Shown: positions 24,225 to 43,266, numbered from the whole stretch's first letter. The stretch is DNA of 63,969 bases, filler included, from Planctomycetota bacterium (GCA_026991575.1; 3 parts of 3 records of this genome joined end to end with filler, not necessarily neighbours in it); one strand, 5' to 3'. Notes: a model not told the origin generated them from the letters alone. Translations and numbers: made by a program.

Positions 24225-24271
24225 GGTCTTTCATCCCCCGTTGGGCTCCATGCGGTGTTATTGTGACCTGA

Positions 24272-25667: not shown

Positions 25668-25714
25668 TGTGACCTCGCCCTCCGCGATGTTCGGGGAGCG
25701 CCCGCTGCGGCCGC

Positions 25715-28808: not shown

Positions 28809-29228
28809 CTATTCGCTACGCGCAGGCCCGACCGGGGGCCTGTGACGATTAATTTTTCGGATGGATGCAGCCACAGCCGAACCCCTTTGCTGATCAAAAG
28901 ACCTGCTTAGCGCCAGAAGTGCGAGAAGTCCATACAGACACGCGAACACTCGCAGCACGCGCCGCCGCCCCGCATGGGCCAGCCAGAGACCGGCCACAAC
29001 TTCAACCACTGCGATTGACGTCGCCAGCGGTGCACTTACGATCCCCACCACCGGCAGCCTCACGAAGCCGTGCTGGCCGATTGCCAGCAGCTTCGCCACA
29101 CCGGCAAACACCAGAAGGGCTGCTCCTGCGGGCTGAGCCACGCGGGCAAGGGCAGCAAACCCAGCACGCCAAACCGCCGCTGACGTGTCCCTGAACACGT
29201 CTGCAACCGCAGACAGCAACGCTGCCAT
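28809..29228 (-). pseudogene. MauE/DoxX-like membrane protein, frameshifted before its CGC motif
   Basis: LLVFAGVAKL...VVEVVAGLWL...LYGLLALLAL in frame. FGCGCIHPKN-stop appears only in a shifted frame near 28850-28885. Confidence 0.6.
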
Positions 29229-29295
29229 TCTGTCCTCTCCGTGCTCGGAGAGCTCGTTCCCTCCACAGCCCGGGTCCGGTGTCCAGACTTGCCCC

Positions 29296-29321
29296 ATTAT
29301 CCTCCTCCTCCTCCTTGTCAA
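29296..29321 (-). promoter_or_regulatory. Microsatellite-spaced promoter TTGACA-(AGG)5-ATAAT (14-bp spacer)
   Basis: Plus strand ATTAT-(CCT)5-TGTCAA; lies upstream of the family-A gene run. Confidence 0.7.
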
Positions 29322-30129: not shown

Positions 30130-31779
30130 CTACCGGCCGCTATCAGGCGGACCGCTGGCGGCGGCGCCGCATCCACAGCGTTGACGTTGGACTCTCATGC
30201 CCCCCTGCGGCACGGTAGTCGCCGTCGTTGAGTCCGATGCTCCTTCGGCCGTGGCGCGGTCCTGAAGTGTGAGGATGATGTGCCGCGTGTCTGCGCAACC
30301 GGAATCGTAGTAGACGGTTGCCCACGCGATGCCGTAGCCAGGTAGCTCTTTGACCAGCCATGCGTTCTGGTGAGAGCAGGCCAGCCACACACGCTCCCCC
30401 TTGACGTCGGTCAGGTGGGAGACGTGTTGCTCGCGCACGAGCGCCGGAGCGTACACGATGAGACGCCTGTCACGATCAGCCAGTTCCGGTGCGTAGACGA
30501 CCAGTTGCAGCGGCACCGGTGGATGTGTCAGGTAGTACTTCAGACGCAAGAAGCACTCGGCGTCGCCAACGAACACATCGCCGGGCTGGCTGTACTTTCG
30601 TACTTCCAGCGCTGCAAGCCGAGCAGCCTCGCGCGCGGGCACGCGATGCCATAGCGCGGCGATGGCCGAGAAGCTGACCGCGATCATGAACAGCGACAAC
30701 GCGACGCCGCGCCAGAATGTGCTCTCCAGCACGAACGCCTTACTGGCCAGCGTGATCATGGCAAGCGGGACGAGATGCACGAGGTAGCGTGCCTCGAAGA
30801 CACTCTGTTTCAGGATGACTGTGCCGAGCACGATTCCCAGCGCGTGAGTCAACGCGATGGCCAGGAACAACCACTCGAATGCAGCTCCGAACCAGGGCAC
30901 GATCAGCAGCAAGCCGAAGGCGGCAGCCAGCACGACGAGCCAGCCACTGGGAGGGGAACCCCACGTTATCGCGCTGATCGGCTCGCTGAACAGCTGTGCC
31001 CACGGACCGGCCAGAGCGTGCCAGCTGAGTGGCGGGATCCAGAACCCACCGCTGACGCGCTGAGCCTGGCCGACAAGCACGGGGACCCAAGGACCATAGG
31101 CTAGCGCCAGAAGGGCGACACTGACCACGCCGCGGCGTAGCAGCAAGTTTCGGACCGGCCGCTCAGCCGCCAGAGTCGCGCCCACGAGCCACAAGAGCTC
31201 TCCTGCAACGACGAACAACCCGTAGTTGTGGGAGTACACCGCGATCACACTCCCGGCCCACCATGCCAGCCAGGGGCCGAGCCGGTGCGGTGTACGGGCC
31301 ACGGCCAGGCAGCCGGCGACGCTCAACATCGTCCCGAACATAAGCATGGCATACATCCGTGCCATGTACGCCGTGCTCGCACACGCGGGATTGGCTGCAG
31401 TCAGCAGGAACGACACCAACGCGAGTTCCTCAGCCCGCTTGACCCGGGCGCTGAAGCCATACCATCCGGCCCAGAACACACACGCGACCGCAGCTACCGA
31501 AAGAATGCCCGACAGAAGGCGCATGCTGAAGATGCTGTCCCCGAGAAGCTCAATCCAGAAATGCAGCAGCAGGTAGTGGCCCGGGGGATGGGTATCCCCA
31601 GCGACCATGCGCAGCAGCTCGGGGACGGGTTGCGTCGCCACGGCCCAGCTGAACGCTTCGTCGTTCCAGAAGCAGACCTTGTCGGTCCAGAGGTTGATCC
31701 GCGCCAGCGTGGCCAGCAGTATGCCTGCCAGCAGGATCCGCCACGGCCGGCTTGTCTCTTGCCGGGCGCCCTGGGTCAC
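30130..31779 (-). CDS. GT-C superfamily integral-membrane glycosyltransferase (PMT/ArnT-like)
   Basis: FWNDEAFS, DTHPPGHYLLL, RLLS, ARMYAM, YSHNYG, PWVP, RYL; many TM helices. Confidence 0.88.
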   Translation of the reverse strand: MTQGARQETSRPWRILLAGILLATLARINLWTDKVCFWNDEAFSWAVATQPVPELLRMVAGDTHPPGHYLLLHFWIELLGDSIFSMRLLSGILSVAAVACVFWAGWYGFSARVKRAEELALVSFLLTAANPACASTAYMARMYAMLMFGTMLSVAGCLAVARTPHRLGPWLAWWAGSVIAVYSHNYGLFVVAGELLWLVGATLAAERPVRNLLLRRGVVSVALLALAYGPWVPVLVGQAQRVSGGFWIPPLSWHALAGPWAQLFSEPISAITWGSPPSGWLVVLAAAFGLLLIVPWFGAAFEWLFLAIALTHALGIVLGTVILKQSVFEARYLVHLVPLAMITLASKAFVLESTFWRGVALSLFMIAVSFSAIAALWHRVPAREAARLAALEVRKYSQPGDVFVGDAECFLRLKYYLTHPPVPLQLVVYAPELADRDRRLIVYAPALVREQHVSHLTDVKGERVWLACSHQNAWLVKELPGYGIAWATVYYDSGCADTRHIILTLQDRATAEGASDSTTATTVPQGGMRVQRQRCGCGAAASGPPDSGR

Positions 31780-33389
31780 GTGTCCCTCCCGTCGATGGAC
31801 TGCTCTGCGGTGCCACGTCGCTCGGCGGTCCGCTTGGCCTCGTGCCGCGACGCGCGCGAGCGAAAACCGCTAGCAGGCTCGATTCCGTCCCGTTTCCGAG
31901 CCGCCCAGGCGCGAACCGGTACCAGACAGCGGACGTCTACCCACTGTTCCAGGTGTAAACCGACAGTGCTTAGCAACTCGGCCAGTTCGTCCGACTTGGC
32001 GAAGTACACGGTACGCTCCAGCAGGCGAACGATACCGCCGTGGATGAGGCGACCGGTGAATGTGTCGACGTTCCCGTCGGCGAGGATCACGAGGCCTCCG
32101 GGTCGGACGACCCGGCTGATCTCGGCGACGGCCTGACCCAGCGACCGGAAATGGTGAGCGGCGTGCAAGCAGACAACGACGTCAAACACGCCACTCCTGA
32201 AGGGCAGGTGCTCGGCTTCGGACCGCACGACGGGCTGCCCGTGCACATTTCTAGGAAGTGGGTCCACGCCAACGTACCGTAGCCTCTGGTGTAAGCTGTC
32301 GGGCCACGCGTTGGCAAAGCCGCACGTGCCGCTGCCAACGTCCAGTACCCTTCCGGCACGCGGGCAGGGGATCAGTTCCAGGGCTGCGCAGTAGGTGGGT
32401 TGGAAAAACCACCGGTGCAGGAAGGCTCCGTCGTATAGCGGAGCGTAGCGGGCAAACAGGATCACATTGGAACGTCTTACCCGCCGGGCGGAATCTGGAT
32501 TCGGGCCGGCTGCAGTTGGTCGTCCCGGCCGGGAAGGCTGCGCCGCATGGGGCTGGAGAGCCTCGGCCATCCCACGGCCACGCAGCTGGGCCAACCGGAT
32601 CAGCATCCGCAAACCGTCACGCACAAAGCTAAGACGTGAGCCGGGACATTCCGTCCAGCGCACGGGCACGGCCCGGATCTGCTTGCCTGTCTTCCAGGCT
32701 AGTGTCAGCAGTTCCAGATCGAAGAGGTAGCCGGTCTCTGTTGTCCGTTCGACCAGCGGTCGCATGCGGTTACGGTCGAGCGCTTTGAAGCCGATTTGGG
32801 GATCGACGACGGGACAACCGGTTAGCCAACGGGCAGCGACGGCGAACAGACGGCTGCCCAGTCGCCGATACCAGAGCCGCTTGACCTTGCCTGCGGCGGC
32901 GCCGCGGACGCGGCAGCCGACCGCGAAATCGGCCCCCAGGGAGATGGCCTGGGCGAGTCGGAGTAGGTCTTCCGGTGGGGTTGCTCCATCGGCATCAGCG
33001 AACAGAACGCACTGCCCACGGGCGGCGAGGAACCCGGTCCGTAACGCCGCCCCCTTGCCCCGGTTCCGCTCGTGCCGGATCACACGCAGCGAGCCTGTTT
33101 GAGGCAGGACCTCCAGCAGTGCCTGCACAGGCTGGATGCTGCCGTCATCGACGATGATGACCTCGTGCCGATCCCCGAAAGCTTGCTCCAGAGCTGGCAA
33201 CAGACGCCGCAGGTGTGTCACCAGCCGCTCGTCCTCGTTGTAAGCCGGAATAACCACGGACACGGCGCATCCGGCGACGGTGTGCCGAGCGGAACGGGAA
33301 GCGGACCCGGCCAGACCTGGCCGGTCGTGCTTCTCGGCTTGACGTCCGGCGCAAGAAACCGCTGGCCTAATCCTGGTCCTACTCGCCAT
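31776..33389 (-). CDS. GT2 polyprenol-phosphate glycosyltransferase fused to class I SAM methyltransferase
   Basis: VVIPAYNE, IVDDGS, NRGKGAA, FADADG, DPQIGFK, YLFDLE; then VLDVGSGT, AEHLPF, FDVV, RVVRPGG. Confidence 0.85.
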   Translation of the reverse strand: MASRTRIRPAVSCAGRQAEKHDRPGLAGSASRSARHTVAGCAVSVVIPAYNEDERLVTHLRRLLPALEQAFGDRHEVIIVDDGSIQPVQALLEVLPQTGSLRVIRHERNRGKGAALRTGFLAARGQCVLFADADGATPPEDLLRLAQAISLGADFAVGCRVRGAAAGKVKRLWYRRLGSRLFAVAARWLTGCPVVDPQIGFKALDRNRMRPLVERTTETGYLFDLELLTLAWKTGKQIRAVPVRWTECPGSRLSFVRDGLRMLIRLAQLRGRGMAEALQPHAAQPSRPGRPTAAGPNPDSARRVRRSNVILFARYAPLYDGAFLHRWFFQPTYCAALELIPCPRAGRVLDVGSGTCGFANAWPDSLHQRLRYVGVDPLPRNVHGQPVVRSEAEHLPFRSGVFDVVVCLHAAHHFRSLGQAVAEISRVVRPGGLVILADGNVDTFTGRLIHGGIVRLLERTVYFAKSDELAELLSTVGLHLEQWVDVRCLVPVRAWAARKRDGIEPASGFRSRASRHEAKRTAERRGTAEQSIDGRDT

Positions 33390-35040
33390 TAGCTGTCCGG
33401 TCCTCTGCACGAGCCAGTGGGCGCAACTCGCGCAGCTCCGCGTAGCTCAGCTGCACCGTGCTCACCCCATCTCGGCCCACGTAGATCCAGCCCGGCCCGG
33501 CAGGCAGCTGGGCAACGATCTGGCCAGACGGGTCGACGACCGCAGATCCTCGATAGGCCTGTGCGGACAATTGCCAGCGCCGTGCCTGAATCCCCCGGCT
33601 CCGCAGTGCCCATCGATGTTCGACGAGTAGGCCCGGCGATGCGGCGAACCGTGATTCATCGCCTATGTGGATCACCGCGGCAATGTTGCTGCCCGGTGTG
33701 GCGTGCGCTCCCCAGTAGACGTACTTTTCCAGGCAGATCGCGACGCGAAACCGCATCTTGCGGCCATCGATGGAACAAATCATGGCTGGGCGCGGGGATC
33801 CGGGCATGAGCACAGGGGGTGGGGTGTGCCACAGCCCCAGAAGACGGCCTAGCTCCAGAAGCTCCGCCGGCGCTGTTTCCAAGAACCAGACTAGGGTCCG
33901 TTTCTCATACCACTGAAAGCTGCCGTCCGGGCCGACGCAGACAGCGCCATTAGTGCGGCGTCCGTTGGGGTAATGCAGTAGCAGGCCGATGATGAAATAG
34001 GTGTCCCAGCGTCTGGCAATGGGCAGGACGGTGTTTTCAAGATCCAAATTGCCCGGCATCTCCAGCAGACGCAGACTACCGTCCGAGGTTTCCTTGACGT
34101 ACGCTGTGCCCAACGTTGTCTCAGGCCACACCACGATGTTCGGACGATGCTCCTGCAGAGCAGCCAGTGTCAGTGCGGCCGCTGTCTCGTCGCGGCCTAG
34201 TGCGGGCACGCCTGCAATGGGCACAGCCGGCACGCCCGGTTGGACCAGAAGGACACCGGACACTGCGGGGGCAGAGCGGGAGCCGGAATGCTGCCAGGCC
34301 AGCCCAAGGAGGTTCGAGGCCACAAGCAGACTAACCCAGGCGGCGATGTACGCTCGCCGGGACGCACGTCTGGTCAGCCACAGGCTCAGTGCGGTCTGCT
34401 GGAACACATTCAGCCATGCCAGTCCCAGCGGCCCGAGGATGGACAGGAGTTGTCCCATTGGCAACGCGGACAGCGGGCTGTGGGACGCCAGTGTGGGCCA
34501 GGCAAACACCCACGCGCGTCCGTGCTCCAGGGATACGACGACCAACGGCCCAACGCACAGGAGGACGGCCGGCCAACGCGAAAGCAGGCTGTACACTTCG
34601 GCCACGATACCCAGCTGGATTCCGAAGAGAAGGCATGCCCCGAAAGCGGCACAGTAGCCGGCGGTTGAATCGGCTACCGAGCAGAGGTAGGGCGCGGCGA
34701 GCATTGCCGTGGTAGCTCCGACCACGGTACCCCAACCGAGGCCCCAGCGACCCAGCAGCGCGAAGCCGAAGAGCGGTACCCAGCAGAAGAGGGCGCCCAC
34801 AGTGATTCCAAACCGGTAGGTAACTACCCACGCACCTACCGTCACGGATACCAGTGCGGCGTTGAGAAGCAGACGGTACAGGGCGATCCGGAACCGTGAG
34901 AACCTTCGCGAGCCCGTGCTGCTGGACGATCCGTCGACGCTGACGGATGGCGTGAAGCGGCGCAGCGCGAGTGCGGAAAGTGACTCCAACCGGGTCCCTA
35001 GCAGTCTCAGCATTGGTCCGCCCGGTGCAGGACCGCGCAT
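33379..35040 (-). CDS. Apolipoprotein N-acyltransferase (Lnt)-like membrane nitrilase-fold enzyme
   Basis: N-terminal TM bundle, VQPG, VVWPET (E), YEKRTLV (K), AICLE (C), GSAVVDPSG. Confidence 0.78.
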   Translation of the reverse strand: MRGPAPGGPMLRLLGTRLESLSALALRRFTPSVSVDGSSSSTGSRRFSRFRIALYRLLLNAALVSVTVGAWVVTYRFGITVGALFCWVPLFGFALLGRWGLGWGTVVGATTAMLAAPYLCSVADSTAGYCAAFGACLLFGIQLGIVAEVYSLLSRWPAVLLCVGPLVVVSLEHGRAWVFAWPTLASHSPLSALPMGQLLSILGPLGLAWLNVFQQTALSLWLTRRASRRAYIAAWVSLLVASNLLGLAWQHSGSRSAPAVSGVLLVQPGVPAVPIAGVPALGRDETAAALTLAALQEHRPNIVVWPETTLGTAYVKETSDGSLRLLEMPGNLDLENTVLPIARRWDTYFIIGLLLHYPNGRRTNGAVCVGPDGSFQWYEKRTLVWFLETAPAELLELGRLLGLWHTPPPVLMPGSPRPAMICSIDGRKMRFRVAICLEKYVYWGAHATPGSNIAAVIHIGDESRFAASPGLLVEHRWALRSRGIQARRWQLSAQAYRGSAVVDPSGQIVAQLPAGPGWIYVGRDGVSTVQLSYAELRELRPLARAEDRTANGE

Positions 35041-35603
35041 TAGCTTCCCCCCTTTTCACGTTCGCCCGGGTCCGCGCGGCTGCTCGTTGCGCTTGCAGAA
35101 TGACCGGCGGAGCTAGCGACGGCGTGGGTCGGCAGCCTGACCGGTATGGTACCCACGTCGGGTCCTACGTAGAGCACAACCCACTCGTCGTTGGAAGCCT
35201 CACCGGTCGAGGGCCTGGCGTCCGGATCCGTGCGTACGCGAAAGACCAGGGTGATCGTCTGCCCGGGGGGGATGGACCGCGGCAGTTGGTCCGTGAGCAC
35301 GCAGTTGCAACTCGCCTGAGCGCCGTAGATAGTCAACGTGCGGCTGGTGAGGTTCTTGAGTCCCACGGGAACGCGGATCACTCCGTTGGACGTTGTCGTT
35401 GGCGCAAGGACGCTCACGGCGAGCTTTTCACCGCCCAGCCACGCGAGGAAATCGTGGAGCGATCCCTTCCAGAGCACACCTGCGCCGATCACGCCGAGGG
35501 CCAACAGCAGTCCCAGCGTGCTGCCCATGATCAAGGATCTAAACTGTGGCCGATCAAACGCCGCTCTAACCATGCCTGAGCGCGCTTCAGTCACCGCGTG
35601 CAT
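35040..35603 (-). CDS. DUF1573-like Ig-fold membrane-anchored protein (start uncertain)
   Basis: TM helix, then LKNLTSRTLTIYGAQASCNC...IPPGQ. Stop overlaps next start (TAATG). Confidence 0.72.
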   Translation of the reverse strand: MHAVTEARSGMVRAAFDRPQFRSLIMGSTLGLLLALGVIGAGVLWKGSLHDFLAWLGGEKLAVSVLAPTTTSNGVIRVPVGLKNLTSRTLTIYGAQASCNCVLTDQLPRSIPPGQTITLVFRVRTDPDARPSTGEASNDEWVVLYVGPDVGTIPVRLPTHAVASSAGHSASATSSRADPGEREKGGS

Positions 35604-36816
35604 CCCCTACGTCGAATTGACGCGATCGGCCCCAACTCCCCGCGGTGGGCTGTCGGGAGCCGACAGCCAGACCGGTCACAGAGGCCCGATCGACGACCGA
35701 CGGGGCCACTACTAGTGCCCGGGGCCGCCTGCCTTGCGCGGTGCGACCTGCACTGGACGTAGTCTTTTGTTTCGCTGCGGTGCGGTGCTGTGGGAGGGTG
35801 CCGTTCCGCACACCGGCACCATAGCCGCGCTTGCCGACGGCTGTGCTGTCTGGACGGGGAGAAAGGTGTCGCACTTCGACAACGATATCCTTGTGTACGC
35901 GGATGAGTAGAGGGGTCTGCCGGACCGATTTCGCCGGGGTCGGTAGCGCGACCACTTGCCAGCCGCTGGCCTGCAGCAAGGACTGCAAATCCTGGTCGGC
36001 GGACAGTAGGACGACCGTTGGCGGATTATCTTCGCCTGGCGGTGCGAAGAGCAGCGGACGCAGATGCTTCACTGAGCGTCGGCACTCAGAGCAAGTGGGA
36101 TCCAGTAGTAGCATGGAGTTCTTGCGGTGCTGGTTTTCCGTAACAGCGTGCAGCATACGAGGCACTGGTTGCCCAAGCCATTGATAGGGATCTACGAGGA
36201 CGCTGCCGCTTCTTGTGACAAGTACTCCCGAGTAGACCTCATGCACTGACCGAGCTGCGAGGGCGACAGAGACGGCGCTGACCGTTGCCAAGCAGGTAGC
36301 GATTCCGGTGCCCAGGGTGACGGACGTGGTGGTGGTGGCGTCAGACCCCGATCTGGTGGCTCGAACGAAGAGTAGTGTTCCAACAGTGAAGTCGAACATG
36401 CTGACCAGTAGGGGATGGATCTGGACGAACGGACCAAAGCAACCGCACGTATCGCGGCCGAGTCCCGCCATCGTTAGAGCGGCGGCTCCCAGAAGCCACC
36501 ACCACAGGGCTGCGAGTCGCTGCAGGGTTCGCCACTGAGGGGTGATGATCAGGACGGTGCCGAGCCAGAGCTCAACGGGAACGGCAGCGTAGCTGACGGT
36601 GGCGAGCCAGCCATCTGCGGCTACGACCCAGCCGAATCGCCACAGTGCTGCCAGCTTGAAGACACTCGCCGCGACAAGAGTGAGTCCAAGTACGACAGGC
36701 AGAGCAGCGCCGGACAAGCTAGCGACCAGAAGGTTCTTGACCGGGCTTTGGCCGCCTTTCGGAGCGCGTGCCGCGGTGTGTTCGGCTACGTTCGTCGTCT
36801 GGCGACTCGTTCTCAT
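35587..36816 (-). CDS. MauE/DoxX-family membrane protein with C-terminal thioredoxin-like CxxC domain
   Basis: LVAASVFKL, VELWLG, TCGCFG, then DPYQWLGQ...LLDPTCSECRR. Confidence 0.8.
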   Translation of the reverse strand: MRTSRQTTNVAEHTAARAPKGGQSPVKNLLVASLSGAALPVVLGLTLVAASVFKLAALWRFGWVVAADGWLATVSYAAVPVELWLGTVLIITPQWRTLQRLAALWWWLLGAAALTMAGLGRDTCGCFGPFVQIHPLLVSMFDFTVGTLLFVRATRSGSDATTTTSVTLGTGIATCLATVSAVSVALAARSVHEVYSGVLVTRSGSVLVDPYQWLGQPVPRMLHAVTENQHRKNSMLLLDPTCSECRRSVKHLRPLLFAPPGEDNPPTVVLLSADQDLQSLLQASGWQVVALPTPAKSVRQTPLLIRVHKDIVVEVRHLSPRPDSTAVGKRGYGAGVRNGTLPQHRTAAKQKTTSSAGRTAQGRRPRALVVAPSVVDRASVTGLAVGSRQPTAGSWGRSRQFDVGDARGD

Positions 36817-37213
36817 GGGTGGCTTCCCCTCAGGGACGGACTTTTTCGCCCGTAAGGCACCTAGTGCACTGCTTCAGTGCGTTCGGGGGTGCCGAACGCG
36901 CGCCGTTCCATCCGGCGCCTTGTCCGTGGTCGTGCGTCGGATCCGTGGTCGCGGAACCGCACCAGCGGCACGGCGACGCAGCCCCAAGGGAGGGTACCAG
37001 AGCCAAAGCCCCAATTGCCACGAGTTTCGCTGCGGGATCCCGGATGCGTGTCCCGCATGACACTTTCGCGTTTGGGTACTAATGGCACGTGGCCCTGGTA
37101 CCCTCGTCTAGCTCCTTGTGACGCCGAACCCCCCTGCCGTGCAGGGCTGCCACCGAGGGACCCACTGCCCGACGGAAACCCCAACGCGCTGGCTCGTGCC
37201 AGCGCGTCAGCCT

Positions 37214-38290
37214 CTAACCGCCGCTAGCCCTTTCCGTGGCACGTGCCCGGCGCAGTGCGAGCAGCGCAAGCAGCGCCAGGACGAGTGCGGTGACGGATCC
37301 TGCCGCCAGGACGAGCGCCCGACTACTGGAAGTCTGCTCAATCGCCGACTCGTCGATCCCGTAGTACGGCAAGTAAAACGCCTCAGCGGGATGGCGGCAT
37401 GCAGTACTGCCAAGGATGGTGTATTCCAACAAGTCGCGTTGGAGGATGGCAGGAGTTCCGTTCATGGTTTCTGCGAGGACCTGTTCAACGACGTACCTGC
37501 TGGGCTCAAGGGATGAACCGTCGGCGTAGAAGACTCTTGTCGTGGTCACGCACTGAACGGTGGGATGAGTAGAAACGACCCTAGCCGAGACGCATGCATA
37601 CTGCCTGGCTGGATCGAAAGAGATGTGCCACTGTCGGTTCGGTCGCGCGAACCAGCAGCGATGCGCGACCGTGGTGGAGACGACGGCCTTCACGCTACCG
37701 CCGGGCGTCCGGACACAGCGGGACGAGAAGCCTCGGGTGCCGGCAAGGGCCACCGTGGCTGGCAGCCCGCAGGCGACTATCGGTGACAATACGGCCATGA
37801 CGGCATCTGACAGCCGGGAACCGTGCTTCCCAACCGCATGGAAGTCCGGATATCGAGCGTACCAGCGGGGGTTTGCCAGGCCACGCCGCAGCGTGTAGTA
37901 GCCTTCTCCTATGCGTAGTACGCTAGCGGAGTACCGTTCGTTGAGCAGAACGACGTGTTCGTTGCCGTTAGAGAGTCGCCTGCGAATACGCAACCTTCGG
38001 TCGCGCAGTCGGAAGCACACCCAAAATTCGTTCGATATGCTGCCAGGAGGTTCTTCGGATGCGGATGCCTGAGGTACCTTCCACACGCGGCTCAAATGGA
38101 ACTCTCGGCCGTCGACGGCGTTCAAGTATTTCGCTTCCAAGGCCCGTACATGTGGCAACAACTGGCCGCACGAGCCGGCATTGTCTTTCTGGCTAGCCTG
38201 CTCGCGCGCATCCACAGCGCTGATCGCGCCCAAGGCCAGGGAGCACAAAGCCCCTATTGTGAGGTGGCTTAGTTGTCTATGCACTAACAT
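37214..38290 (-). CDS. Family-B partner protein B4
   Basis: Signal peptide; LEAKYL..DGREF, FWVCFR, WY..YPDF, CRHPAEAFYLPYYGIDES, TM plus RR. Confidence 0.85.
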   Translation of the reverse strand: MLVHRQLSHLTIGALCSLALGAISAVDAREQASQKDNAGSCGQLLPHVRALEAKYLNAVDGREFHLSRVWKVPQASASEEPPGSISNEFWVCFRLRDRRLRIRRRLSNGNEHVVLLNERYSASVLRIGEGYYTLRRGLANPRWYARYPDFHAVGKHGSRLSDAVMAVLSPIVACGLPATVALAGTRGFSSRCVRTPGGSVKAVVSTTVAHRCWFARPNRQWHISFDPARQYACVSARVVSTHPTVQCVTTTRVFYADGSSLEPSRYVVEQVLAETMNGTPAILQRDLLEYTILGSTACRHPAEAFYLPYYGIDESAIEQTSSSRALVLAAGSVTALVLALLALLALRRARATERASGG

Positions 38291-38511
38291 TCCTCTTCCT
38301 GGTCGTTCCACCTGCACTGCAGCGCGCCCTGTCGTTGGCAGTCGTTATTGCGGTAGGCGCACCTGGTCTTCTTGCTAGGAGTCCATCCGTCGCAGTGGAC
38401 GTCTAGGCTAGCCAGTGCAGGGCGTTCCACGGACCGAGCGGTTGCGAAAGCTAAGAGGAGGGACAGCATGCCGAGCGAGGAGGCAACGGCGACGAGCAGG
38501 GTCTGCTTCAT
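38284..38511 (-). CDS. Exported Cys-rich peptide B4, ending at an amber codon inside the terminal CxC
   Basis: MKQTLL signal; CDGWTPSKKTRCAYRNNDCQRQGALQCRWNDQEEEC-TAG-CIDN-TAA. Confidence 0.8.
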   Translation of the reverse strand: MKQTLLVAVASSLGMLSLLLAFATARSVERPALASLDVHCDGWTPSKKTRCAYRNNDCQRQGALQCRWNDQEEEC

Positions 38512-38686
38512 GGCCTGGCTCCGTCGTGATTGACCCGTCGCAGTTAGGGCTATCGGCACCGACTCTCCTTCTCCGCCGCCCCGTCGAGAGGCTGAGGCGT
38601 CAAAACTAATGTTTCCGGGCCGCGGCCCTGGCCGGGCCGCGCCATTTGGCCTTGGCCGTTGTCTTCGCACGGGCACCAAGTCCGGA

Positions 38687-39739
38687 TCAAGTGGCGGAGT
38701 TCGGACGGTTCCATGCTCGCCGCAATGCCAACAGGGCGAGCAAGGCCAGAAGCGCGGCAGCGGCCGATGCTGCCGCCAGCACGGCCACGCGCAGCGTTCC
38801 CAATGGCCTGATCACCGACTCGTCAATGCCGTAGTACGGCAGGTAGAAGGCTTCCGGGGGATGTCGACATAGCGTACTGCTAGCGATCGTGGATTCTGTT
38901 ACCAATTGTTGCACAACGTGGGTAGAGCTCTCGGACGATTCCCTAAGGACTTGTTCAACTACATAGCGACTCGGCTGGACCGGCGTGTGCCCAGAATAGG
39001 TGACAGTGGCGGTCACCTCGCTCGTGAACGAGTCGTGCGTGGACGTTACTCTAGACGCGATACACGCGAACCGCTGGCTGGGGTCGAGTGTCACCTCCCA
39101 TTGCTGACCTGTGCGCACCAACCACGATTGATGTTCGTGGATCGGGGTGGAGCGGATGCGCAGCAAACCCTCCTGGGTATACGCGCATCGGGAAGAGAAT
39201 ACCCTGTCATGACCGGCCAGCAGGGCAGTGACCGGTGGACCGCCGGCAACCACAGGAGCCAGGATGGCCAACGTAGCCTCCGCTGCCTGTGACCCGTGCG
39301 CCCCGATGGAGTAGAGATCGGGGTACCAGCCCTGCCATTGCGAGACGGCGGTATGCCGCTCGAGAAAGTATCCTCCAGCGGCGAGCCGCACGACGCGCGC
39401 GGAGTAGTACTCGTTCACGAGAATAATGCGTTCCTTGGCGTCCGGACGGCGCGGCCGCCAACGAACGAGTAGCTTCCTTTCCCGCGGCCGGAAGCAGATC
39501 CAGAAGTCATTCGGCGGTGACTGGACCGAGTCCTGACCGTCTTGGTTATCAACCGGTGCGACCAGCTTCCAACGCTGCACGACGTGGAATTCTCGGCCAT
39601 CAAGTTCGTCCAAGTAGCGGGCCTCAAGCTCCCGCACCTGCGGTAGCACCTCGGAGCACGCGGTACCGTCGGGATGTTGCTGAACCGGTGCTGGAGCCGT
39701 CGCCGCTGGTACCATGGCCAACAGCACTACCACCCACAT
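38687..39739 (-). CDS. Family-B partner protein B3, 350 aa
   Basis: MWVVVLLAMVPAATA signal; paralog motifs; C-terminal TM plus RRAWNRP. Confidence 0.88.
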   Translation of the reverse strand: MWVVVLLAMVPAATAPAPVQQHPDGTACSEVLPQVRELEARYLDELDGREFHVVQRWKLVAPVDNQDGQDSVQSPPNDFWICFRPRERKLLVRWRPRRPDAKERIILVNEYYSARVVRLAAGGYFLERHTAVSQWQGWYPDLYSIGAHGSQAAEATLAILAPVVAGGPPVTALLAGHDRVFSSRCAYTQEGLLRIRSTPIHEHQSWLVRTGQQWEVTLDPSQRFACIASRVTSTHDSFTSEVTATVTYSGHTPVQPSRYVVEQVLRESSESSTHVVQQLVTESTIASSTLCRHPPEAFYLPYYGIDESVIRPLGTLRVAVLAAASAAAALLALLALLALRRAWNRPNSAT

Positions 39740-39759
39740 GCGAACGTCTCCGCTGCGCG

Positions 39760-40011
39760 CTAGCCCCTGCACTCGCACTGGTTCATCTGATTAATCCACA
39801 TGCAGCGAAGTAGCCCCTGTTCCTGGCAACGATTGTTCCGAAGTGCACACCAGTTCGGATTGCTGGGCTGCCAGCCGTCGCACTGAGGGGGAGGGCCACC
39901 TTCTGCCCCCGGAACCGGTCGGTGCGCCGCTGCCAGCAAGGCCGCAACTGCCAACAGCACCGCTAGCACACTGGACGACGAGAACAGCGCCGCCAGGAGC
40001 GTTCGTTTCAT
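39760..40011 (-). CDS. Exported 6-Cys peptide B3, 83 aa
   Basis: MKRTLL plus hydrophobic signal; C-x10-C-x6-C-x7-C-x8-CxC; GGAGG RBS. Confidence 0.87.
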   Translation of the reverse strand: MKRTLLAALFSSSSVLAVLLAVAALLAAAHRPVPGAEGGPPPQCDGWQPSNPNWCALRNNRCQEQGLLRCMWINQMNQCECRG

Positions 40012-40072
40012 GGTCACGCCTCCGCTGAACGCTCGAACGGTGGCGTTGGTCATACAGCCCGATACCACCCCA

Positions 40073-40095
40073 ATTATCCTCCTCCTCCTTGTCAA
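40073..40095 (-). promoter_or_regulatory. Microsatellite-spaced promoter TTGACA-(AGG)4-ATAAT (11-bp spacer)
   Basis: Plus strand ATTAT-(CCT)4-TGTCAA, ~60 nt upstream of peptide B3. Confidence 0.7.
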
Positions 40096-40191
40096 GACCT
40101 CAGGCACGAAGGTCTCGGCCTCCTGGCCGCGGCCCTGGCCAGGCAGGGGCGGTGAGCCGGCTGACGTGTTGCCGCCAGCACAAGTGGTGGC

Positions 40192-41241
40192 TCACACGCT
40201 GGAATTCGGACGATTCCATGCTCGCCGCAATGCCAACAGGGCGAGCAAGGCCAGAAGCGCGGCAGCGGCCGATGCTGCCGCCAGCACGGCCACGCGCAGC
40301 GTTCCCGATGGCCTGATCACCGACTCGTCAATGCCGTAGTACGGCAGGTAGAACGCCTCGGGAGGATGCTGGCACGGTGTGGGCGGCCCAATGGTGTACT
40401 CGATCAGCAGGTGATGCACCACGCTTGGTGACTTGCCAGCCACAGACCTGACTAGCTCCTCCACAACATATTTGGCGGGAAGCAGGGACGTCGGAGCTCG
40501 CTCAATCACTTCTCTTCTCACTTCGCCGTGGAACGATCTCCACGTGTCGGTTGCCTTCGACCTGACGCACGCAAAGTGTCGGCTGGGATCAAGGACGACT
40601 TCCCATTGGCGGTCCGAGCGCGCGTACCAGGGCTGATGTTCCGCGCTGCTAGAGACCTGCAAATGTACAAGGCCTTCAGAGGTTAGGACGCAGCGACATG
40701 AGAATCCGTGTTCTCCTTTAAGCATAGCGGCGACTGGTGGCCCCCCTGCAATTATCGGCGAGAGGATTGCCAGAACGGGATCGGCTGCGCGAGAGCCATG
40801 GATGCCAATCGAGTAGAAATCGGGGTACCACCCTTCCCATTGCGGGGTGGCTGTGTGTCGTTCGAGGAGGTACCCGCCCTCGGCGAGGCGCAAAACGCGG
40901 GCGGAGTAGAGGTCGTTTACGAGGATGACACGCTGGTTGCCTTTCAGGCGGCTCGGCCGCTCGCGAATCAGGATCTTCTTGTCTCGCAGCCGGAAGCAGA
41001 CCCAGTAGTCGGTCGTTCGTGGTTGGGCCGACGCCACTTGATCGGGTGCATCAGCGGGTGTGTCCAGCTTCCAGCGCCGGGCCACGTGGAACTCCCGACC
41101 GTCGATCTCATCCAAGTATTGGGCTTCGAGCGCTCGGACCTTGCTTAAGACGTCTGAGCACGGAAGTCCAGCCGGCTGTTGGTAAAGGAACAGGGAGCCG
41201 CTAATCACAAAGGCTATCGGTAACAGGTTCGCCGGCCACAC
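40192..41241 (-). CDS. Family-B partner protein B2, 349 aa
   Basis: GGAGG RBS plus GTG; paralog motifs; C-terminal TM. Confidence 0.88.
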   Translation of the reverse strand: MWPANLLPIAFVISGSLFLYQQPAGLPCSDVLSKVRALEAQYLDEIDGREFHVARRWKLDTPADAPDQVASAQPRTTDYWVCFRLRDKKILIRERPSRLKGNQRVILVNDLYSARVLRLAEGGYLLERHTATPQWEGWYPDFYSIGIHGSRAADPVLAILSPIIAGGPPVAAMLKGEHGFSCRCVLTSEGLVHLQVSSSAEHQPWYARSDRQWEVVLDPSRHFACVRSKATDTWRSFHGEVRREVIERAPTSLLPAKYVVEELVRSVAGKSPSVVHHLLIEYTIGPPTPCQHPPEAFYLPYYGIDESVIRPSGTLRVAVLAAASAAAALLALLALLALRRAWNRPNSSV

Positions 41242-41262
41242 GTGGTCCTCCTCCGGAACACG

Positions 41263-41514
41263 CTATCGGTGGCATTCGCAGTGGCCCATGTCCATATTCC
41301 ACTTGCACTGCAGTTGTCCCTGCCGCTGACAGCTGTTGTTGCGGAACGCACAGCGCTTCGGATCGCTGGGCTGCCATCCGTCGCACTGAGGGAGACCGCC
41401 ACCTTTGGCTCCCAGAACCGGTCGGTGCACCGCTGCCAGCAAGGCCGCAACTGCCAACAGCACAGCGAGCAGACCGGATGATGAGAACAGCGCTGCCAGG
41501 AGCGTCCGTTTCAT
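41263..41514 (-). CDS. Exported 6-Cys peptide B2, 83 aa
   Basis: Same signal and Cys spacing; ends CKWNMDMGHCECHR. Confidence 0.87.
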   Translation of the reverse strand: MKRTLLAALFSSSGLLAVLLAVAALLAAVHRPVLGAKGGGLPQCDGWQPSDPKRCAFRNNSCQRQGQLQCKWNMDMGHCECHR

Positions 41515-41575
41515 GGTCACGCCTCCGCTGAACGCTCGAACGGTGGCGTTGGCCATACAGCCCGATACCACCCCA

Positions 41576-41598
41576 ATTATCCTCCTCCTCCTTGTCAA
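41576..41598 (-). promoter_or_regulatory. Microsatellite-spaced promoter TTGACA-(AGG)4-ATAAT (11-bp spacer)
   Basis: Plus strand ATTAT-(CCT)4-TGTCAA upstream of peptide B2. Confidence 0.7.
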
Positions 41599-41694
41599 GG
41601 CCTCAGGCACGAAGGCCTTGGCCTCCTGGCCACGGCCCTGGCCAGGCAGCGGCGGTGAGCCGGCTGACGCGTTTCCGCCGGCACAAGTGGTGGC

Positions 41695-42744
41695 TCACAC
41701 GCTGGAATTCGGACGGTTCCATGCTCGCCGCAATGCCAACAGGGCGAGCAAGGCCAGAAGCGCGGCAGCGGCCGATGCTGCCGCCAGAACGGCCACGCGC
41801 AGCGTTCCCGATGGCGTGATCACCGACTCGTCAATGCCATAGTACGGCAGGTAGAACGCCTCGGGAGGATGCTGGCACGGTGTGGGAGGCCCAATGGTGT
41901 ACTCGATCAGTAGGTGATGCACCACGCTTGGTGATTTGCCAGCCACAGACCTGGCTAGCTCCTCCACGACGTATTGACTCGGCAGTAGAGAGGGGGTGTT
42001 AGTGTAGGTGGTTTGGGCCGTTACTTCTCCTGCGAAGGAATCCCAGCGTGAGGTCACCCTTGACTTGGTGCAAGCAAACTGCTGGTTGGGATCCAAGGTA
42101 ACTTCCCATTGCCGGTCCGTGCGCACGAGCCATGGCTGGTACTGGGTGGTGGAAGAGGCACGGAGCCGGAGCAATCCTTTGGAAGTGAGGCCGCAGCGAG
42201 AAGTGAACCCATGCTCGCCCGCAAGCAAGGCAGCAATCGGCGGACCAAGGGCCACTACGGGCGACAACAGCGCTAACACCGGGTCGGCTGCCCGCAACCC
42301 ATGGATCCCTATCGAGTGGAAATCAGGGCACCACCTTTCCCAGGAGGGTGGGCCTGCGTGGCGCTCCAGGTAATAGCCACCCCCGGCCAGTCTCAGGACG
42401 CGGGCTGAGTAGGATTCGTTGACCAGGATGATTCGTTCTTGACCGTCTGGGCGCCCCGAATGCCAACGGATCAGCAGCCGCTTCTGACGCAGCCGAAGGC
42501 AAATCTGGAAATCGTTCGTTGGCGGTTGTGCCGACGCCACTTCATCACGGTTGTCCGTCGGCGACGCCAGCTTCCAGATCTGCCTAACCCGGAACTCCTG
42601 CTCGTCGATTGTGTTCAGGTACCGTGCCTCGAGCGTTCGAATGTGCGGCAACACCTGCGAGCATCCAGCACTGTTCGCCTGTTGGTGGGCAAGGTGGAAG
42701 TTGGCCAGAGCAGAGAGTGTGGCGAGGACCACCACCAGGCACAT
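41695..42744 (-). CDS. Family-B partner protein B1, 349 aa
   Basis: AGGAGG RBS, MCLVVVLATLSALA signal; paralog motifs; C-terminal TM. Confidence 0.88.
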   Translation of the reverse strand: MCLVVVLATLSALANFHLAHQQANSAGCSQVLPHIRTLEARYLNTIDEQEFRVRQIWKLASPTDNRDEVASAQPPTNDFQICLRLRQKRLLIRWHSGRPDGQERIILVNESYSARVLRLAGGGYYLERHAGPPSWERWCPDFHSIGIHGLRAADPVLALLSPVVALGPPIAALLAGEHGFTSRCGLTSKGLLRLRASSTTQYQPWLVRTDRQWEVTLDPNQQFACTKSRVTSRWDSFAGEVTAQTTYTNTPSLLPSQYVVEELARSVAGKSPSVVHHLLIEYTIGPPTPCQHPPEAFYLPYYGIDESVITPSGTLRVAVLAAASAAAALLALLALLALRRAWNRPNSSV

Positions 42745-42764
42745 GAACGCCCTCCTGCTGCATG

Positions 42765-43016
42765 CTAGGGAGTGCACTCGCAATGGTTCATCATCATATT
42801 CCACTTGCACTGCAGTTGTCCCTGGCGCTGACAGCTGTTGTTGCGGAACGCACAGCGCTTCGGATCGCTGGGCTGCCATCCGTCGCACTGAGGGAGACCG
42901 CCACCTTTGGCTCCCAGAACCGGTCGGTGCGCCGCTGCCAGCAAGGCCGCAACTGCCAACAGCACAGCGAGCAGACTGGATGATGAGAACAGCGCCGCCA
43001 GGAGCGTCCGTTTCAT
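42765..43016 (-). CDS. Exported 6-Cys peptide B1, 83 aa
   Basis: Same signal and Cys spacing; ends CKWNMMMNHCECTP. Confidence 0.87.
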   Translation of the reverse strand: MKRTLLAALFSSSSLLAVLLAVAALLAAAHRPVLGAKGGGLPQCDGWQPSDPKRCAFRNNSCQRQGQLQCKWNMMMNHCECTP

Positions 43017-43077
43017 GGTCACGCCTCCGCTGGACGCCCGAACGGTGGCGTTGGTCATACAGCCCGATACCACCCCA

Positions 43078-43124
43078 ATTATCCTCCTCCTCCTCCTCCT
43101 CCTCCTCCTCCTCCTCCTTGTCAA
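43078..43124 (-). promoter_or_regulatory. Microsatellite-spaced promoter TTGACA-(AGG)12-ATAAT (35-bp spacer)
   Basis: Plus strand ATTAT-(CCT)12-TGTCAA; flanks nearly identical to the n=4 copies. Confidence 0.7.
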
Positions 43125-43220
43125 GGCCTCAGGCACGAAGGCCTTGGCCTCCTGGCCACGGCCTTGGCCAGGCAGCGGCGGTGAGCCGGCTGACGCGTTT
43201 CCGCCGGCACAAGTGGTGGC

Positions 43221-43257
43221 TCAGACGCTAGAGTTCGGACGGTTCCATGCTCGCCGC
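43221..43257 (-). CDS. 3' end of a further family-B partner gene, cut by gap
   Basis: Encodes ...RRAWNRPNSSV-stop, identical to the B1/B2 ends. Confidence 0.7.
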
Positions 43258-43266
43258 AGATACAAC

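Follow-up and report, generated by a model that had tools for sequence, protein, structure and literature searches.

A tandem array of gene pairs for cysteine-rich peptides and predicted LolA-fold, membrane-anchored partners in a planctomycete

The window analysed here, i.e., the whole stretch of 63,969 nucleotides (filler included) joined from three parts of three records of a Planctomycetota bacterium genome (GCA_026991575.1), carries four small paralogous ORFs for cysteine-rich peptides. The original prediction described four defensin-sized peptides with six cysteines each and interpreted them as a three-disulfide scaffold with a variable specificity loop. The observation was partly confirmed and its interpretation partly supported by the present analysis. 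The downstream gene had been overlooked, and the peptide belongs to a conserved module whose other half is a partner protein with a predicted LolA fold.

The array is located on the minus strand, where a two-gene cassette is repeated four times in tandem. In each cassette a peptide gene is followed by a gene for a partner of approximately 350 aa:

42765..43016, minus strand, pepD: 83-aa precursor with a Sec-type signal (MKRTLL...LLAAA) and 6 Cys, ending in CECTP
41695..42744, minus strand, partner D: approximately 349 aa; N-terminal hydrophobic signal, LolA-like ectodomain, PEAFYLPYYGIDES motif, C-terminal TM helix, RR
41263..41514, minus strand, pepC: 83-aa precursor with 6 Cys, ending in CECHR; the peptide copy used for modelling
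40192..41241, minus strand, partner C: 349 aa; GTG start
39760..40011, minus strand, pepB: 83-aa precursor with 6 Cys, ending in CECRG
38687..39739, minus strand, partner B: 350 aa; predicted LolA/LolB-superfamily fold; the partner copy used for modelling
38284..38511, minus strand, pepA: 75-aa precursor with 5 Cys; the most divergent copy
37214..38290, minus strand, partner A: approximately 358 aa; its ATG overlaps the pepA stop
43078..43124, minus strand: TTGACA-(AGG)12-GATAAT upstream of pepD, inside an upstream block of 94-97% identity
43267..43366, no strand: artificial contig junction with N runs around ttaattaattaa, at which the array is cut

The peptide-gene starts are 1500, 1503 and 1502 bp apart, exactly as first described, and a repeat search returned direct-repeat families with identical spacing. 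The reported periodicity of about 1.5 kb is thus real, but it reflects how long a two-gene cassette is and not how far apart isolated peptide genes lie. Since the array ends at the contig junction, there are at least four cassettes; a fifth, divergent one was found on another contig (C129) of the same genome, the peptide copy of which has 4 Cys, with both C1 and C6 missing, and no clear start. Each peptide start, MK(R/Q)TLL, is preceded by a Shine-Dalgarno-like GGAGG or GGAG (in pepD a GGAGG 8 nt before the ATG), and the partners in copies B, C and D start 20-21 nt after the peptide stop, each with its own Shine-Dalgarno site: partner D 21 nt past the pepD stop with AGGAGG ahead, partner C with its GTG 21 nt past the pepC stop with GGAGGAGG ahead, and partner B 20 nt past the pepB stop. 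In copy A the peptide stop and the partner ATG overlap (ATGTTAG), which suggests translational coupling, and we infer that peptide and partner genes are co-expressed. The cassettes thus consist of adjacent, co-oriented genes for a secreted peptide and a membrane-associated protein, the arrangement expected of bacteriocin-immunity pairs. At the position matching the (AGG)12 of pepD, copies B and C have (AGG)4, and positions 43073-43128 were flagged as a repeat when reads were compared.

Only three of the four peptides have the six cysteines originally ascribed to all of them. The cysteines of copies B, C and D are spaced C-x10-C-x6-C-x7-C-x8-C-x-C (in pepD within a predicted mature peptide of approximately 54 aa), and in copy A a TAG stands at the x of CxC (...EEEC-TAG-TGC), so that the ORF stops after the fifth Cys. 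Copy A and the C129 copy may be decaying. The motif was recovered as CDGW.PS....C..RNN.CQ.QG.L.C.W-x6-CxC, with four residues rather than the described three separating PS from the second Cys. Copy-to-copy alignment bore out that most variation lies in the last loop (NDQEEE / INQMNQ / NMDMGH / NMMMNH across the four copies). The notion of this loop as a locally hypervariable spot did not hold, however, since in the comparison of copies C and D the loop forms the 5' margin of an old block that has recombined (see below). The net charge of the peptides is about 0 to +2 (manual count from the sequences), i.e., they are not strongly cationic.

A structural model of mature pepC was obtained with AlphaFold2 from a 5-sequence alignment (pLDDT 72.1 overall and 69-86 beyond residue 12, pTM 0.49), in which a helix (H23-35) is followed by a beta-hairpin (E40-44, E49-53), with C1 placed in a loop at the N-terminus, C2 and C3 in the helix, C4 in strand 1 and CxC in strand 2. 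Of the 43 Foldseek matches listed for this model, at least 33 were titled as plant, insect or fungal defensins or scorpion toxins, but none was at or below 0.001 (best E 0.76), and the best Z in the wide VIA search was 2.6, for a model built from five sequences. The resemblance to CS-alpha-beta defensins lies in the predicted element order, the terminal CxC and the titles of the fold matches; no fold score is significant. As originally noted, CxxxC is absent, and C-x6-C stands in its place. The peptides consequently do not fit the CS-alpha-beta expression CX(2,18)CX(3)CX(2,12)CX(4,17)CXC as given in the accessible part of PMC11561630: CX(6)C replaces CX(3)C, the other four terms fit in copies B, C and D, and copy A lacks the last Cys of the pattern. 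None of the four peptides matched a Pfam family at E<=0.01, pepB matched no NCBIfam family, and no peptide homologue was found among 56 word-sharing candidates drawn from 5.8 billion clusters. In CS-alpha-beta peptides the final strand is tied to the helix by two parallel disulfides, and the connectivity is C1-C4, C2-C5, C3-C6. Judged from its cysteines, the C129 copy, lacking C1 and C6, would fit a C1-C6 bond better, but this copy may be decaying.

The partner begins with a signal, followed by a LolA-like ectodomain (approximately 290 aa) and, ahead of a membrane anchor at the C-terminus, a conserved FYLPxYG(I/F)xES motif; the juxtamembrane FYLPxYG, and not a variable pocket, is the most conserved element. 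The model of partner B (pLDDT 91.5, pTM 0.84) gave 46 Foldseek matches at E<=0.001, led by LolA-superfamily entries (NE2245, E 7.8e-7). In VIA the closest structures were Porphyromonas gingivalis LolB (Z 14.0, rmsd 3.9, 212 residues aligned), a DUF1329 protein (Z 13.3) and NE2245 (Z 13.0), the top three aligning over 208-214 residues, and Z ranged from 14.0 to 12.4 across LolB, DUF1329, NE2245, LolA3 and 3bk5. The predicted structure shows the beta-barrel that characterizes LolA and LolB, antiparallel and not closed, with a helix at the N-terminus or as a lid, and these high-confidence predictions show that the partner is modelled with a LolA/LolB-superfamily fold. The nearest named Atlas clusters were also of the LolA/LolB-superfamily kind, at a low score of 0.80. 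At the sequence level, none of 76 partner-family members matched a Pfam model at E<=0.01 (LolA, LolB, DUF1329, TP_0789-like and MucB_RseB included), and no NCBIfam family was found for the three members searched, although partner D matched the family's own profile with an E-value of the 1e-57 class.

The partner family was represented by 147 sequences at E<=1e-3 among 1.84 billion proteins. Of the 401 genomes (202 genera) sampled from the class, 123 (75 genera) carried it; in a phylum-wide sample of 301 genomes it was matched only in genome G000 and two genomes of the same class. Among 25 testable partner loci of other genomes, 15 have an ORF with a hydrophobic leader and at least six Cys that ends just upstream of the partner gene (17 if the threshold is set at four Cys), in comparison with 0/30 in antisense controls and 55/3108 frames genome-wide. 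These upstream peptides are unrelated in sequence, and in 19 of 26 a CxC falls among the last 8 residues (2.8 expected by shuffling). Throughout the class, the partner family is therefore associated with Cys-rich peptides that bear a signal, usually end in CxC and are unrelated in sequence, and this unnamed pairing, the partner half of which has no Pfam model, is widespread in that planctomycete class. At 8 of the 25 testable genes no upstream peptide was detectable, so the partner may also have a peptide-independent role; partner genes without peptides occur in tandem runs.

Both cassette genes are under purifying selection. Between old copies the dN/dS was 0.09-0.13 for the C1..C4 core of the peptide, from which it follows that the peptide frames are coding, and 0.19-0.26 for the partner ectodomain. 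Contigs of other metagenome runs, where the only runs holding the locus were labelled hydrothermal vent, had 32 listed differences in these genes, 21 synonymous and 11 not. Copies C and D are 97-100% identical up to the fourth Cys, 43-77% identical across last loop and partner ectodomain, and again 93-98% identical at the partner motif and TM helix; dS is 0.03-0.07 in the flanks vs. 1.18 in the core (last loop and partner ectodomain). The cassettes are thus mosaics, in which homogenised flanks surround old variable blocks made up of the C-terminal part of the peptide and the partner ectodomain. This pattern shows recombination of old alleles and not positive selection, and dN/dS is below 1 wherever it was measurable, except in tiny windows.

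Two further genes lie downstream of the array, the first of them, for a putative disulfide-forming protein, at a distance of approximately 400 nt:

35587..36816, minus strand: MauE-like membrane protein of 409 aa with a CGCFG motif and a C-terminal CSEC (CxxC)
35040..35603, minus strand: protein of 187 aa with a weak DUF1573 match (E 2.3e-4, 21.6 bits, below the cut-off of 26.1)

The 409-aa protein has no direct Pfam match and is tied to MauE (PF07291) only transitively, via a MauE-family protein of G000 (BLASTP E 2e-11, 28% identity over 207 aa, CGCFG and CxxC motifs aligned) that itself scores 24.8-27.1 bits on PF07291 (cut-off 27). MauE and MauD mature the Cys-rich small subunit of methylamine dehydrogenase. 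In G000, three of the five MauE matches at E<0.01 are encoded immediately ahead of genes of the partner family, and another genome has four cassettes of a MauE+DUF1573 protein, a protein with 23-24 Cys and a partner. MauE-type (DsbB-like) disulfide-forming proteins thus recur beside the module, and the accessible part of bioRxiv 10.64898/2026.03.05.709764 reports that MauE replaces DsbB through a CGC active site. Two loci of G000 have a PMT_2 GT-C glycosyltransferase gene directly after the partner gene; in the window a Lnt-like gene and a GT2+methyltransferase gene lie nearby, and the neighbouring 'Family A' peptides have an RR-containing, Tat-like leader. In the Pfam-based annotation of the contig, neither an outer-membrane export route, a bacteriocin-type transporter or a processing gene nor a metal transporter or sensor was seen.

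In the explanation we tentatively prefer, each of at least four tandem cassettes encodes a disulfide-bonded peptide for secretion and, anchored in the membrane, a cognate protein that binds it or confers immunity. The precursor would be Sec-exported, and its Cys-rich core of approximately 40 residues probably folds in the periplasm into a disulfide-stabilised mini-protein of helix and beta-hairpin, CS-alpha-beta-like but with C-x6-C in the helix. The neighbouring MauE-like/CxxC protein would make the disulfides. The partner, encoded directly downstream and presumably co-translated, would face the periplasm with its LolA/LolB-type half-barrel and sit in the inner membrane with its C-terminal helix. 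Each peptide may be bound specifically by its own partner; the block joining peptide C-terminus and partner ectodomain in copies C and D bears on binding only indirectly. The peptide would act as a defensin- or bacteriocin-like antagonist, sequestered by the partner at the producer's membrane in the manner of an immunity protein. Tandem partner genes without peptides fit orphan immunity genes, and if this explanation is true, the arrays and peptide-less partner genes represent accumulated specificities. Counted against it were the weakly charged peptides, the lack of an export or processing gene in the contig, the insignificant defensin fold likeness, the eight of 25 partners without a peptide, the perhaps decaying copies A and C129, and a mosaic that reflects old-allele recombination at dN/dS <1.

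That the LolA-fold partner is instead a membrane-tethered chaperone or carrier dedicated to the peptide, with no antagonism involved, is possible but doubtful. The partner would hold the nascent peptide for MauE-dependent oxidation, and perhaps glycosylation, before handing it to the envelope or surface, where it might be structural, adhesive or signalling for the producer itself. LolA-superfamily proteins are carriers or binders, and the strong predicted fold match, the recurring MauE-type proteins, the glycosyltransferase, Lnt-like and GT2+methyltransferase genes and the strongest conservation in the FYLPxYG motif rather than in a variable pocket all suit this role. With a general chaperone, however, one would not expect every peptide to have a paralogue of its own, or the peptide's C-terminal part to be inherited together with the partner ectodomain. 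Tandem runs of peptide-less partner genes speak against it as well, and there is no known target structure. A metallothionein- or copper-storage-like role in a metal-rich habitat, with the peptides binding metal by their thiolates in the periplasm and the partner as a membrane docking protein, appears unlikely: the Cys density, the CxC shared by otherwise unrelated peptides, the vent metagenomes and the adjacent peptides with Tat-like leaders would agree with metal handling, but the MauE-type neighbours argue for oxidised cystines, the model is a compact alpha/beta mini-protein of the disulfide-stabilised kind, and no metal transporter or sensor accompanies it in the contig.

The original framing as stand-alone defensin-type peptides, in which the downstream gene is unrelated and was simply carried along in the duplications, is quite improbable. 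It draws on the CS-alpha-beta-like predicted topology with its terminal CxC and on the existence of bacterial cis-defensins in Myxococcota, Actinobacteria and Acidobacteria (PMC11561630; PMC6989792); 'Planctomyc' does not occur in the accessible part of PMC11561630. It was already disfavoured by the translational coupling and the shared variable block, and the partner family follows unrelated Cys-rich peptides at 15/25 loci in other genomes vs. 0/30 control. A non-functional repeat, i.e., chance ORFs or a decaying pseudogene array, hardly deserves credence: the missing sixth Cys of copy A and the loss of two Cys and a clear start in the C129 copy point that way, but strong purifying selection on both genes, conserved Shine-Dalgarno sites, synonymous-biased variation in other runs and a class-wide family had already made it very unlikely.

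Several known systems resemble the module in part. With the mau-type logic it shares a MauE-family CGC membrane protein, here with an added CxxC or DUF1573 domain, encoded beside a small, very Cys-rich exported protein; it differs in the absence of methylamine dehydrogenase genes, in its unrelated substrate peptides, in its LolA-like third partner and in the window's own MauE-like protein, which is linked to the Pfam model only transitively. With the LolA/LolB superfamily (also DUF1329, TP_0789-like, the RseB/MucB N-domain and LprG) the predicted partner shares the N-terminal helix and long antiparallel half-barrel. It is larger in its ectodomain, matches no Pfam or NCBIfam family, has a TM anchor preceded by the family-specific FYLPxYG(I/F)xES, and is encoded after a Cys-rich peptide gene rather than in a lol operon; the anchor and the peptide-gene context argue for a role other than that of a LolCDE-linked carrier of lipoprotein acyl chains.

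Lantibiotic producers follow a comparable logic with their membrane-anchored LanI immunity proteins. Like bacteriocin/immunity pairs and polymorphic toxin-immunity arrays, the cassettes have a small secreted-peptide gene before a presumably co-transcribed gene for a membrane-anchored extracytoplasmic protein. The pairs have diverged and stand in tandem, second genes also occur as orphans, and one variable block covers both the peptide C-terminus and the partner. They differ in that no dedicated exporter or leader protease was found; the partner fold is also not one known for immunity proteins, which to our knowledge are not LolA-like. The accessible part of the polymorphic-toxin survey PMC3482391 does not mention LolA, cysteine-rich, disulfide or defensin. 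With CS-alpha-beta defensins and scorpion-toxin-like peptides, finally, our peptide shares a signal peptide, a 6-Cys core of approximately 40 residues and, in the model, one N-loop Cys, two helix Cys, a strand-1 Cys and CxC in the last strand, and it differs from them by C-x6-C instead of the defining CxxxC in the helix, by lacking a sequence-family match and significant fold scores, by being weakly cationic and by being encoded together with an obligate-looking, predicted LolA-fold partner.

The Family B array was located at the high end of contig C63, on the minus strand, and comprised four paralogous ORFs for secreted Cys-rich peptide precursors (pepA-pepD), each with a gene for a protein of ~350 aa, here called its partner, directly at its 3' side. 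The window was composed of contigs C60 (1-21750), C63 (21851-43266) and C70 (43367-63969) of a genome assembly of 191 contigs and 4.96 Mb, with spacers of N and 'ttaattaattaa' between the contigs. The original prediction had given distances of 1500, 1503 and 1502 bp between the peptide gene starts, which were right and were recovered as the same period by a repeat search; the repeating unit of ~1.5 kb was, however, a two-gene cassette of peptide and partner, the partner half of which had been overlooked. The cassette genes were the following:

38284-38511, minus strand, pepA, ending after the fifth Cys
37214-38290, minus strand, partner A, overlapping the pepA stop codon in ATGTTAG
39760-40011, minus strand, pepB, six Cys
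38687-39739, minus strand, partner B, 20-21 nt past pepB
41263-41514, minus strand, pepC, six Cys
40192-41241, minus strand, partner C, 20-21 nt past pepC
42765-43016, minus strand, pepD, six Cys
41695-42744, minus strand, partner D, 20-21 nt past pepD

Six Cys, expected for all four peptides, were thus present in three copies and five in copy A, where a TAG codon at the x of the CxC motif stops the peptide after the fifth Cys. The peptide genes started with MK(R/Q)TLL preceded by GGAGG or GGAG, and each partner gene had its own Shine-Dalgarno sequence. Since the array reaches the contig end, four copies are a minimum. A fifth, divergent cassette was located on contig C129 of the same genome, the end of which has sequence in common with that of C63, and a fragment of a partner C-terminus upstream (C129:6284-6403) shows that a former cassette decayed there. 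In the peptide of the fifth cassette (positions 1260-1457 of the fetched locus), whose start was unclear, neither the first nor the last of the six Cys remains (AVGGW..., ...RHCKK); unless the gene is a pseudogene, this loss would be consistent with a C1-C6 disulfide instead of the canonical CS-alpha-beta pairing.

Scans of positions 36500-43266 for promoters and terminators gave 1 and 4 sites, the same as shuffled sequences, and Rfam gave 0 matches over the same interval. An (AGG)n tract was observed between TTGACA and GATAAT upstream of pepB, pepC and pepD (copy D at 43078-43124). Copy D has n=12 and a spacer of 35 nt, copies B and C have n=4 and one of 11 nt, and a spacer of 17 nt would correspond to n=6. 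Translation of the tract from a GTG upstream of it yields poly-Arg. The tract may be a promoter spacer prone to slippage (phase variation), or its position may be coincidental.

The peptide precursors consisted of a long hydrophobic leader with AxA-like ends (LAAA/HRP, ATA/RS; judged by eye) and a core of the form C-DGW.PS-x4-C-..RNN.-C-Q.QG.L.-C-.W-x6-C-x-C. No match to the peptides was found in Pfam or NCBIfam, and a homologue search of 5.8 billion protein clusters (56 word-sharing candidates) returned none. The predicted structure of mature pepC, based on a 5-row alignment (pLDDT 72.1, pTM 0.49; residues 13-54 at 69-86), contained a helix (residues 23-35) carrying C2 and C3 and then a hairpin of strands 40-44 (C4) and 49-53 (CxC). 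Foldseek searches with this model gave 0 matches at E<=0.001 (best E 0.76, TM 0.35-0.5); among the matches listed below significance at least 33 of 43 were, by title, plant, insect or fungal defensins or scorpion toxins. An independent fold search retrieved only four chains at Z>=2 (best 2.6), three of which had a toxin or defensin scaffold. Structure prediction and fold search, as proposed for checking the peptides, yielded a helix-hairpin and a defensin-dominated list, but with all scores below significance.

The expression used for mining bacterial cis-defensins is CX(2,18)CX(3)CX(2,12)CX(4,17)CXC (PMC11561630), and 74 bacterial defensins from three phyla were reported there, the available part of the text making no mention of Planctomycetes. 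The original remark that the terminal CxC recalls CS-alpha-beta defensins while CxxxC is absent was borne out, as the Family B peptides have CX(6)C in place of CX(3)C and fit all other terms of the expression. It is plausible that the Family B peptide resembles, or works like, a CS-alpha-beta peptide; its membership in that family is not established.

The four partners shared a short N-terminal hydrophobic segment, a domain of ~290 residues, an invariant PEAFYLPYYGIDES motif and a C-terminal hydrophobic helix followed by RR. The AlphaFold2 model of the partner, built on a 76-sequence alignment (pLDDT 91.5, pTM 0.84), showed an N-terminal helix, a long antiparallel sheet, two short helices at FYLPYYG and a C-terminal transmembrane helix. 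LolA-superfamily entries ranked first in Foldseek (3buu, E 7.8e-7), and VIA-align matched the model to LolB of P. gingivalis (Z 14.0, rmsd 3.9, 212 aligned), a DUF1329 protein (Z 13.3) and NE2245 (Z 13.0). In Pfam none of the 76 partner-family members matched (0/76) and NCBIfam gave no partner match; a homologue search with the partner profile returned the proteins of the window itself and two fragments, everything else being annotated only as 'hypothetical protein', and the best 30 Atlas clusters were all unnamed (30/30) and mostly from Planctomycetota. A sortase- or PEP-CTERM-like sorting signal at the C-terminus (motif, transmembrane helix and RR) was considered and rejected because the motif was modelled (pLDDT 96-98) within the folded domain and lies ~13 residues from the transmembrane helix. 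Assignment as a lipoprotein was rejected by eye because of polar residues between the h-region and the conserved Cys. The ectodomains of partners A-D (37214-42744) had five invariant Cys in common, an odd number, one of them 5 residues before FYLPYYG and one right after the signal; these five were not conserved in the wider partner family, and one of them might be free to form a mixed disulfide with the peptide. A complex prediction for partner B (residues 22-312) with mature pepB (5-row alignment), run twice and without controls, returned no answer (score 0.00), which is evidence neither way.

Sliding identity between copies B, C and D was 90-100% over the partner 3' end (motif and transmembrane helix), the intergenic region and the peptide leader, just 43-75% over the C-terminal part of the peptide and the entire partner ectodomain, and again 93-100% at the next end encoding the transmembrane helix. 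Copies C and D differed in the flanks by a dS of 0.025-0.07 and in the ectodomain by 1.18, with saturation of dS across the last loop of the peptide. This loop, in which most variation had been placed, was indeed diverged; these identity and dS zones make it the border of an old block of alleles, which runs into the partner gene and spans its ectodomain, so that the C-terminal loop of each peptide is genetically tied to the ectodomain of its own partner. Recombination has homogenised the flanks or swapped the blocks, and this mosaic pattern is no evidence of positive selection. Between old copies dN/dS was 0.09-0.13 for the peptide core and 0.19-0.26 for the partner ectodomain. The array was also compared with contigs from three metagenome runs, of which the best covered the unique parts of all four cassettes at a similar depth (41-47) and may be the source sample, while the other two contained related sequence. 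None of the runs found for the locus was an RNA run. Among the differences listed in the metagenome contigs 32 fell in peptide or partner genes, 21 of them synonymous and 11 not. Both the peptide and the partner genes are constrained.

The pairing of peptide and partner was examined at loci from other genomes by searching for a same-strand frame of at most 220 aa that encodes a hydrophobic stretch free of charged residues and, after it, six or more Cys, and that ends within the interval -450 to +150 relative to the partner start. Such a frame was present at 15 of 25 testable loci, and at 17 when at least four Cys were required; the antisense control beyond the partner 3' end gave 0/30, and the genome-wide rate for frames of at least 300 aa in the genome of the window was 55/3108, true cases included. 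Eight of the 25 partners were without a detected peptide, and partner genes also occur in peptide-free runs. The paired peptides were unrelated in sequence and contained 6-24 Cys; 19 of 26 distinct peptides had CxC within the last 8 residues, compared with 2.8 expected when each mature part was shuffled, which makes the terminal CxC noted in the original prediction the sole feature common to the whole peptide assemblage.

A 7-sequence partner profile searched against 1.84 billion proteins retrieved 147 representatives at E<=1e-3 (64 at <=1e-10), mostly of 320-370 aa, and a related-locus search with a 7-row alignment found four loci, from Planctomycetaceae, Isosphaeraceae and Schlesneria. The 76-sequence profile detected the family in 123 of the 401 genomes sampled from the class, and in 75 of 202 genera; the family was frequently multicopy and tandem in positive genomes and had at least 14 members in the genome of the window. 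When 301 genomes were sampled across the phylum, matches were confined to this genome and two others of the same class, with none among the 284 genomes of other families or classes.

The remainder of contig C63 contained the following features near the Family B array:

35587-36816, minus strand, 409-aa membrane protein with the motifs CGCFG and, C-terminally, CSEC, separated by ~400 nt from the downstream end of the array
33379-35040, minus strand, Lnt-like CN-hydrolase membrane protein, between the two cassette arrays
31776-33410, minus strand, GT2 and methyltransferase fusion, between the two cassette arrays
30130-31779, minus strand, 549-aa multi-pass protein of no family, between the two cassette arrays
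28809-29321, minus strand, membrane protein of 170 aa, weakly matching MauE (Pfam E 0.014; genome search 19.3 bits)
27816-28787, minus strand, partner-like gene near the Family A array, directly downstream of the 170-aa protein gene
26425-27372, minus strand, partner-like gene near the Family A array
21851-26462, minus strand, second cassette family, probably the one named Family A originally, at least three copies

The Family A peptide had eight Cys and an RR-containing, Tat-like leader (MLSRRHVLAAASG...QCRPTAL.CFTISPNQCDPRVWKHQCDRN...C.C), and its partner of ~325 aa was tail-anchored with the motif FRPEAFGIP. By hhalign the Family A and Family B partners belong to the same superfamily (probability 97.8%, E 1e-12).

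The 409-aa protein had no direct Pfam match and its homologue search returned only itself; it resembled, with both motifs (E 2e-11, 28% over 207 residues), a protein of the same genome whose match to Pfam MauE scores at the cut-off. Three of the five MauE matches in this genome (E<0.01) lay directly upstream of partner-family genes. Contigs C28 and C118 each encoded, in this order, a MauE-family protein, a peptide of 11-12 Cys (C..C.RDCTL...GGC.TE...C.DC.C...CVCEL), a partner-family protein and a PMT_2 glycosyltransferase, and a similar peptide occurred upstream of a partner in another genome (L051/L022). A further genome (G293:C176:52600-68300) carried four consecutive cassettes of ~2.6 kb, each encoding, in this order, a MauE+DUF1573 fusion, a secreted Cys-rich protein (162-176 aa, 23-24 Cys) and a partner-family protein; the arrangement follows the same principle, and its Cys-rich product is far larger. 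A 2026 preprint reports that MauE proteins substitute for DsbB in E. coli by means of a CGC motif on the periplasmic side, and that fusions of these proteins with thioredoxin-fold domains are common (10.64898/2026.03.05.709764). Given these neighbours and the DsbB replacement, disulfide formation in the peptides is likely.

The 549-aa protein, a paralogue of which adjoins the fifth cassette, had no link to PMT_2 by Pfam or BLASTP. The Lnt-like and GT2 genes (31776-35040) resemble the two-domain polyprenol-phosphate-mannose synthase of actinobacteria, and together with PMT_2 after the partner genes of C28 and C118 they are hints that exported products are glycosylated.

We tentatively favour a role of the cassettes in which the product is a secreted antagonistic peptide and the partner its cognate self-protection protein. 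The peptide would be exported by Sec, oxidised in a MauE-dependent manner and specifically bound by its own membrane-tethered LolA-fold partner, with arrays and orphan partners representing accumulated specificities. The main rival takes the partner for a dedicated chaperone or carrier of an envelope or signalling peptide used by the cell itself; this corresponds to the usual job of LolA-fold proteins and suits the PMT_2, GT2 and Lnt-like neighbours, and we consider it rather unlikely. Binding of metal by the peptides is improbable, the MauE context arguing against it. Extended beyond the window, the antagonistic reading would describe a class-wide recognition or antagonism system of Planctomycetia, in which hypervariable Sec- or Tat-exported cystine mini-proteins, oxidised by dedicated MauE-type enzymes and unified only by the C-terminal CxC, are matched with private C-tail-anchored LolA-fold receptor or immunity proteins, the cassettes being shuffled between homogenised flanks and possibly controlled in expression by (AGG)n; as a whole this is doubtful.

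No account of the module in print was found in the literature search, and in 300,000 characters of PMC3482391 there were 0 occurrences of LolA, cysteine-rich, disulfide or defensin. If such a system is real, Family B would be a new cis-defensin scaffold variant (C-x6-C helix) in a new phylum with a new kind of cognate partner. A functional pairing would define a large protein family that has no name, with 147 representative clusters and members in ~31% of the Planctomycetia genomes sampled. It would also define a highly diverse counterpart set of disulfide-rich mini-proteins that defensin screens based on patterns would overlook, since these peptides lack CxxxC. The LolA fold would gain a new role, binding a small cystine peptide while tethered to the membrane, and the recently proposed MauE oxidative-folding pathway would gain natural substrates. 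The peptides would then offer compact, stable scaffolds with built-in cognate binders for studies of peptide-receptor specificity, possibly antimicrobial leads, and would bear on competition and communication in the poorly studied Planctomycetia.

Among known systems the peptide is nearest to the cis-defensins, whose defining CxxxC Family B lacks. The partner is closest in predicted fold to LolA/LolB, and is set apart by its unique tail anchor and motif, with no described sequence family fitting it. In gene logic the cassettes are closest to bacteriocin-immunity pairs, and likewise to the MauE/MauD/small-subunit logic of mau clusters.
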